DNA from: Escherichia coli
GTDB lineage: Bacteria; Pseudomonadota; Gammaproteobacteria; Enterobacterales; Enterobacteriaceae
Assembly: GCF_046105845.1 (NCBI RefSeq)
Contig: NZ_CP151004.1
Direction: 5' to 3' (one strand)
DNA length: 64,000 bases
This document shows positions 2,565 to 2,601 of the stretch, piece by piece. A program made the position numbers and the translations under genes. The notes beneath the pieces were generated by a model. The model made no database searches. It saw nothing but the letters and a program-made list of their open reading frames with translations, and was not told the DNA's origin. Every line of letters begins with the position of its first letter. Position 1 is the stretch's first letter.

Positions 2565-2601
2565 GATTGTAGAGGCATGTTCTGATGACGCCTCTACAAT
2601 C
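2565..2601 (+). other. Perfect 12-bp inverted repeat (13-nt loop) between yhiL and yhiJ; possible terminator or protein-binding palindrome
   Basis: GATTGTAGAGGC-N13-GCCTCTACAATC read directly; weak T-tract downstream. Confidence 0.4.

Follow-up and report, generated by a model that had tools for sequence, protein, structure and literature searches.

A perfect inverted repeat between yhiL and yhiJ of Escherichia coli as a candidate 3'-UTR stem-loop of the yhiL mRNA

Intrinsic terminators typically combine a loop of 3-8 nt with a G+C-rich stem base and at least five U residues in the 8-nt tail, and RNA left untranslated after a premature stop codon is a classic setting for Rho polarity. Rho-dependent transcripts of E. 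coli end precisely just past stable stem-loops that have no U-tract, and these stem-loops protect against the exonucleases PNPase and RNase II (Dar and Sorek, 2018; PMC6061677). For the K-12 strain, DirectRNA-seq in the presence and absence of bicyclomycin has yielded a catalogue of 1078 Rho termination regions (Adams et al., 2021; PMC7815308). Here we describe a perfect inverted repeat at positions 2565-2601 of a 64-kb stretch of E. coli chromosome (contig NZ_CP151004.1; the whole stretch is referred to below as the window, and positions are counted in it unless stated otherwise). With a probability of about one half, we propose that this repeat is an RNA stem-loop in the 3' UTR of yhiL, with a role in defining or protecting the 3' end of an mRNA whose termination would be mainly Rho-dependent.

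The window is collinear with the yhiM-yhiL-yhiJ-yhiY-yhiI region of K-12 and reverse-complemented with respect to NC_000913.3. The yhiL coding sequence (894-2501, plus strand) is intact and encodes a protein of 535 aa with DUF6860 and DUF4049 domains, according to its open reading frame and translation, Pfam and the K-12 and O157 annotations. The downstream yhiJ coding sequence (2763-4385, plus strand) encodes 540 aa with a DUF4049 domain, by the open reading frame, annotation and Pfam. The island containing both genes has a G+C content of 31-42%, against about 60% for the neighbouring yhiI and rbbA. DUF4049 proteins were found in Escherichia only, and a peptide-pattern scan of genome contigs for YhiJ and YhiL returned 58 pattern matches and no relatives. 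Both YhiL (894-2498) and YhiJ (2763-4382) carry the motifs YFGDTDG, FLGDxTGDRFS and VLAGNHE, which we take to resemble the GDxHG / GDxVDRG / GNHE signature of PPP or calcineurin-like metallophosphoesterases; a phmmer search of the two proteins against PDB sequences gave no match, and their Pfam label is a DUF. The spacer between the two genes is bound by H-NS (PMC3946193), and the genes induced late in the SOS response are reported to include both yhiJ and yhiL; no LexA-type box was found near the repeat.

The two arms of the repeat, at 2565-2576 (GATTGTAGAGGC) and 2590-2601 (GCCTCTACAATC), are complementary at 12 of 12 positions, both by direct reading of the sequence and with a repeat finder. 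The repeat starts 63 nt past the yhiL stop codon, in the orientation of the gene. In dinucleotide-preserving shuffles of the 64-kb window, 0.075 perfect 12-bp repeats with a loop of 3-20 nt are expected per window, and 6% of shuffles contain at least one; the real window contains two. The feature is real and non-random. The initial annotation had described a perfect, GC-containing 12-bp palindrome in an AT-rich spacer separating two paralogs. The paralogy is borne out by the shared DUF4049 domain and 35% identity between YhiL and YhiJ, as are the perfect 12-bp complementarity and the contrast in composition (46% GC in the hairpin vs 33% in the 261-nt yhiL-yhiJ spacer); the term palindrome holds for the complementarity and not for contiguity, the arms being 13 nt apart, so that the feature is strictly an interrupted inverted repeat. 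Its K-12 equivalent lies at 3632752-3632788 on the minus strand of NC_000913.3, and no feature is annotated there in any of the K-12 or other records examined. The other perfect short-loop repeat of the window, at 34214-34250 (CTCTTTCCCTGC, 13 nt, GCAGGGAAAGAG), has the same geometry of a 12-bp stem and a 13-nt loop with no U-tract, and starts 16 nt past the stop codon of an open reading frame at 33113-34198 on the plus strand; it may be a second U-less 3'-UTR stem-loop. A sister hairpin 3' of yhiJ or 5' of yhiL, as might be left over from the duplication, was also sought, and no similarity was found.

When transcribed from the plus strand, the 5' arm (2565-2576) pairs with the 3' arm (2590-2601, GCCUCUACAAUC) around a loop of 13 nt (2577-2589, AUGUUCUGAUGAC), and the stem is followed by a tail (2602-2616, UUUAGGGAAUUUCUC) with a short U run that is not a U-tract. 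The hairpin has an energy of -18.3 kcal/mol, with G-C in 6 of its 12 pairs; these are clustered toward the loop, leaving only two G-C among the six base-proximal pairs. It is the sole strong structure in the spacer (-19.7 kcal/mol vs -8.8 kcal/mol for the next best 45-nt window). A 71-nt plus-strand RNA folds at -26.1 kcal/mol (z = -5.3) and the minus-strand RNA at -21.7 kcal/mol (z = -6.8), so the reference sequence by itself folds about equally well on both strands. The minimum free energy fold extends the helix on the plus-strand RNA only, by a doubtful lower stem in which 2555-2562 (UUUCUUAA) pairs with 2603-2610 by means of three G.U pairs, and in some alleles three additional loop-proximal pairs reduce the apical loop to 5 nt. 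We do not consider either extension to be part of the element, as neither is conserved among alleles: position 2610 is a C in most of them and 2603 is a C in allele L010, and the loop-proximal pairs are lost in the O157 and ST69 alleles. A mini-ORF in the loop (ATG-TTC-TGA) was likewise set aside, its start codon being lost in the ST69-type allele. A scan of 2000-3200 against Rfam 15 at a permissive E-value returned only chance-level eukaryotic snoRNA and miRNA models (E >= 0.57, far below gathering thresholds).

Natural variation in the arms offers a way to ask on which strand, and in which molecule, the pairing matters. We compared a sample of alleles rather than all of the 4170 genomes that carry the hairpin (see below), and aligned eight distinct ones. 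The recurrent arm polymorphisms are at 2576 in the 5' arm and at 2592 and 2594 in the 3' arm, and all three are C>T changes opposite a G; that at 2576, which yields a U.G pair, is the only one in the 5' arm of appreciable frequency. Changes of this type give a G.U pair in plus-strand RNA and an A.C mismatch in minus-strand RNA or in a DNA cruciform, and they break the palindrome at the DNA level. Across the eight alleles, all 96 of the 96 pair cells hold a standard pair, three pairs being changed on one side and none on both, i.e. no double compensatory change occurs among these eight. Loop substitutions (2579 G>A, 2581 T>A and 2587 G>A) occur freely and include a transversion. A metagenome contig scan, with a pattern anchored on the flanks and all 37 hairpin bases left free, provided an independent sample of 64 homologous copies in which the known variants recur and 63 of the 64 are fully paired, the exception being a singleton with a disruptive G>T at hairpin position 5. 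Among alleles with up to 9% spacer divergence, the stem keeps all of its pairs. Polymorphic sites are not underrepresented in the arms (3 of 24 positions vs 34 of 237 in the rest of the spacer, p = 0.55), and the chance of three wobble-preserving changes out of three under transition-biased neutrality is p ~0.04-0.13. Since the arm changes keep pairing only in the plus-strand RNA, the polymorphism pattern is suggestive of a role of the sense-strand RNA rather than of the DNA.

Of 5426 complete E. coli genomes, 4170 carry the full-length hairpin; in each of these, a 91-nt and a 37-nt query both had a single hit, which was never on a plasmid. Among these carriers, the 37-mer is identical in 2661, has one difference in 923 and two or three in 586, all in full-length alignments. 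A search of the window that allowed up to three mismatches revealed neither another copy nor a half-site. We considered a dispersed repeat (REP/BIME, MITE or ERIC) and rejected it, because the element is single-copy. In E. albertii the gene order is the same, YhiJ is 57% identical and the flanks of the hairpin align, whereas the core has diverged (fold z = -1.0); in the spacer of this species we found neither a similar inverted repeat nor a site resembling a terminator. On these alignments, the perfect repeat is specific to the E. coli lineage, a restriction that could reflect either a recent origin, such as a template-switch mutation, or its loss in E. albertii.

The whole yhiL-yhiJ island is missing from about 1140 complete E. 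coli genomes, that of Nissle 1917 included; these match the window again from a point shortly before yhiY and yhiI, with a boundary at about 4519-4533. About 100 other complete genomes have the yhiJ 3' end and no hairpin. In one hairpin-less locus (L023, 2501-4168), a yhiL-yhiJ fusion gene of 555 aa, N-terminally DUF6860 and C-terminally YhiJ-like, occupies the place between yhiM and yhiI, and the spacer has been deleted together with the hairpin, presumably by recombination between the paralogs. In another (L009, 3560-3860), a deletion of about 1 kb starts around codon 229 of YhiL and stops a few bases from the hairpin's 3' foot, and the yhiJ promoter block is still in place; its ends show possible TATC/AATC microhomology, and no match to this allele was found in the complete RefSeq E. 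coli genomes. In both loci the hairpin went together with the 3' end of yhiL, as would be expected of an element belonging to this gene. The gene itself appears to decay often, independent frameshifts or internal stops in yhiL being seen in several strains other than K-12.

Evidence for termination in this region comes from K-12, where one of the Rho regions of Adams et al., of the class "orphan", has 3632784 (minus strand) as its best coordinate (PMC7815308, Supplementary file 2). This corresponds to position 2569, four bases into the 5' arm, at the low resolution of a score built on 800-nt windows. The upstream and downstream counts are 73 and 36 without bicyclomycin and 182 and 249 with it, giving a Rho score of 2.77 (p = 5e-6; PMC7815308). 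The rise in downstream reads upon bicyclomycin treatment could also reflect a derepressed yhiJ promoter. In K-12, yhiL (L001, 1496-3102) is a pseudogene, in which a 1-nt deletion at nt 1190 leads to a stop at codon 413 and leaves 432 nt of untranslated RNA between the premature stop and the hairpin; because of this, the K-12 Rho polarity may not hold for strains with an intact yhiL, such as that of the window. The sequence downstream of the hairpin lacks the C>G bias of a rut-like region, with 10 C vs 18 G and then 13 C vs 24 G in successive 100-nt windows and a GC skew of +0.12 to +0.23. The curated Term-seq tables list no discrete 3' end closer than some 250 nt to the hairpin (K-12 36325xx-36329xx; PMC7815308), an absence that is little informative given the low expression of the locus, and the SMRT-Cappable-seq and TERMITe supplements have no entry at the hairpin site, again at low expression.

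The yhiJ gene is predicted to have a promoter of its own. Genomic SELEX assigns to yhiJ a constitutive RpoD promoter in the H-NS-bound spacer, described as having a 19-nt spacer and the -10 box TATAAT (PMC3946193). This description has a single fit in the yhiL-yhiJ spacer, a predicted sigma-70 promoter at 2648-2678 on the plus strand, with the -35 box TTAAGG at 2648 (TTGAGG in K-12), 19 nt, and TATAAT at 2673-2678; the hairpin ends 47 nt upstream of the predicted -35 box. The -10 box is kept in E. albertii, the stretch AAATATAA around it (2670-2677) being invariant from E. coli to E. albertii. The alignment columns also reveal an invariant block at 2626-2644 on the plus strand (ATAAGAAA-N-TTCATATTAT). 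Both 2626-2644 and 2670-2677 are far better conserved than the hairpin, even though YhiJ is only 57% identical between the two species. The block at 2626-2644 is probably part of the yhiJ promoter/operator region, outside the hairpin, and 2626-2644 and 2670-2677 are more likely than the hairpin to be the promoter or operator of yhiJ. A scan of genome contigs with the conserved-block pattern ATAAGAAANTTCATATTAT gave 72 chance matches in unrelated AT-rich genomes and none in Escherichia. In E. coli PSS-15 (L005, 3190-3900), an IS1A copy is inserted about 50 nt 3' of the hairpin (about window position 2652), at or near the predicted yhiJ -35 box. A putative sRNA named AC3630 is listed between yhiL and yhiJ (Table S1, PMC12306157) and was considered as a possible counterpart of the hairpin. 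Its table uses NC_000913.3 coordinates, the crl/IS1 and cpxP rows fitting that version only, and the entry maps to 4432-4570, i.e. not to the hairpin, and corresponds to a putative 139-nt sRNA or 5'-UTR transcript in the yhiJ-yhiY spacer (PMC12306157). Upstream of yhiI and by the yhiY uORF, Adams et al. placed two Rho-dependent 3' ends (3630645 and 3630667; PMC7815308). The AC3630/yhiY uORF area is a separate regulatory region downstream of yhiJ.

Several other explanations of the repeat have to be weighed against a Rho-linked 3'-UTR stem-loop. The initial annotation had offered two, a terminator of yhiL or a regulator-binding site that separates expression of the paralogs. As a stand-alone intrinsic terminator, the hairpin and the UUU that follows it would free RNA polymerase without any factor. 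The hairpin is stable, in the right place and in the right orientation, three U residues come directly after the stem and give a tail score of 2.54, within the top 5% of the local AT-rich background, and the minus-strand tail is A-rich, so that any such activity would be strand-specific. Set against this are the 13-nt loop, which is not short, the AU-rich stem half next to the tail (GAUUGU/ACAAUC), a tail (UUUAGGGA) with 3 U in 8 nt, weakened further to UCU in allele L010, and a composite d score of about -23 with a formula of the d'Aubenton Carafa (1990) type. A terminator scanner called no terminator-like site in 2300-2900, which says only that the formal pattern is absent, the scanner performing no better here than on shuffles (28 sites in 1-20000 vs 23.7 in shuffles). 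Read-through in K-12 rises with bicyclomycin, which an efficient intrinsic terminator would forbid (PMC7815308). We therefore consider factor-independent termination improbable as the main function of the hairpin, with the tail UUU possibly making a weak intrinsic contribution. What survives of the proposed yhiL terminator is its place and strand, 63 nt past the stop codon with pairing kept in the sense RNA; the canonical intrinsic mechanism does not survive. A different RNA role, as an RNase III site in a yhiL-yhiJ read-through RNA or as a 5'-UTR structure of a longer yhiJ transcript, would fit the plus-strand bias of the polymorphisms equally well, and the helix of the window allele can be extended to about 20-23 bp, near the length of an RNase III substrate. 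The parts that extend it, the lower stem and the three loop-proximal pairs, are however the unconserved ones, and no promoter or transcription start site for yhiJ is known upstream of the hairpin, the SELEX-predicted one being downstream; we hold such a role to be quite unlikely.

A DNA-level element appears just as doubtful; it would control or insulate the paralogs from a position upstream of the yhiJ promoter, as a cruciform or as the site of a dimeric regulator. The two-fold symmetric DNA does have its centre some 100 bp ahead of the predicted yhiJ start, in a region bound by H-NS and next to genes that are conditionally expressed, with late SOS induction. Yet 12-bp half-sites with a 13-bp spacer are atypical for a dimeric regulator, the sequence occurs once per genome and, mismatches allowed, has neither a second copy nor a half-site in the window, the block that is invariant to E. 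albertii is 2626-2644 and not the hairpin, and the recurrent polymorphisms break the DNA symmetry while keeping the RNA pairing. The regulator-binding site suggested at the outset thus gained no positive support, the missing window copy and LexA-type box and the broken DNA symmetry all speaking against it. More weight has to be given to the possibility, still an unlikely one in our judgement, that the repeat is without current function: it would have arisen perfect in one step, perhaps through quasipalindrome correction (a template-switch mutation), and would since have been drifting. The E. albertii flanks are homologous with no repeat at that position, the arms are as polymorphic as the rest of the spacer, no double compensatory substitution was seen in the aligned alleles and one metagenomic copy has a disruptive G>T, hairpin-less alleles exist in nature, and the genes are H-NS-silenced, with yhiL often a pseudogene. 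A drifting relic does not readily account for all three recurrent arm changes being of the type that preserves pairing in the sense RNA, for a stem that stays fully paired across alleles with up to 9% spacer divergence, or for the loss of yhiL along with the hairpin in the hairpin-losing lineages. A more speculative combination, which we mention as a long shot, is that a young RNA element of the E. coli lineage, perhaps born by template switching, was recruited as an insulator or processing site (e.g. an RNase III or exonuclease barrier) that uncouples the H-NS-silenced DUF4049 paralogs; were this true, the locus would provide a datable de novo birth of a functional 3'-UTR structure.

Taken together, these observations suggest that the feature is probably functional at the RNA level, and the reading that we favour at about 50% remains the 3'-UTR stem-loop of a mainly Rho-terminated yhiL mRNA. 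The repeat would be transcribed within the yhiL 3' UTR and fold into the 12-bp stem-loop of about -18 kcal/mol; Rho, on which termination in the K-12 region is reported to depend (PMC7815308), would mainly halt transcription beyond yhiL, with a small intrinsic part possibly added by the post-stem UUU. By analogy with the described class (PMC6061677), we infer that 3'-to-5' exonucleases would then trim the transcript back to the foot of the hairpin and stall there, leaving a 3' end protected by the structure. The outcome would be that yhiL transcripts are kept apart from yhiJ, for which a separate promoter is predicted 47 nt further on. If this is correct, the hairpin is another case of a 3'-UTR stem-loop with no U-tract that fixes the mature end of a Rho-terminated transcript, and a hitherto unannotated feature of the yhiL-yhiJ spacer would explain the behaviour of the paralogs as separate transcription units. 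In practical terms the hairpin is of small value, that of a clean, single-copy test case for the Rho-plus-exonuclease-barrier model in horizontally acquired, H-NS-silenced DNA, for which natural alleles to compare are at hand (the G.U variants, the deletion and the gene fusion), and it has no bearing on any long-standing open question.

Among the known systems, dimeric-factor operators share with this locus a perfect two-fold symmetric DNA upstream of a promoter; the half-sites and spacer are unusually long here, the window holds no second, regulon-like site, and natural variants break the DNA symmetry and keep the RNA pairing. With REP/BIME elements, which stabilise mRNA 3' ends, the hairpin shares an extragenic location between co-oriented genes and a structure that could block 3' exonucleases, whereas each of the 4170 genomes has it at one place only and the window contains no related copy. 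Canonical intrinsic terminators resemble it in having a sense hairpin after a stop codon with U residues directly following, and differ in the number of these (3 U vs at least 5 of 8), the 13-nt loop, the AU-rich base, the negative score and the silence of the scanner. With respect to the class of Dar and Sorek, the differences are that no precise steady-state 3' end is mapped at the hairpin foot, at the low expression of the locus, that C is not enriched over G downstream, and that the loop is longer than typical. The likenesses are the defining feature of the class, a stable sense-strand stem-loop past a gene with no U-rich tract after it, together with the lack of an upstream A-tract, a stem energy in the range of terminators, and a K-12 region that scores as Rho-dependent, in 800-nt windows and with yhiL a pseudogene. 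The element is of an ordinary kind, probably an unannotated member of this known class.
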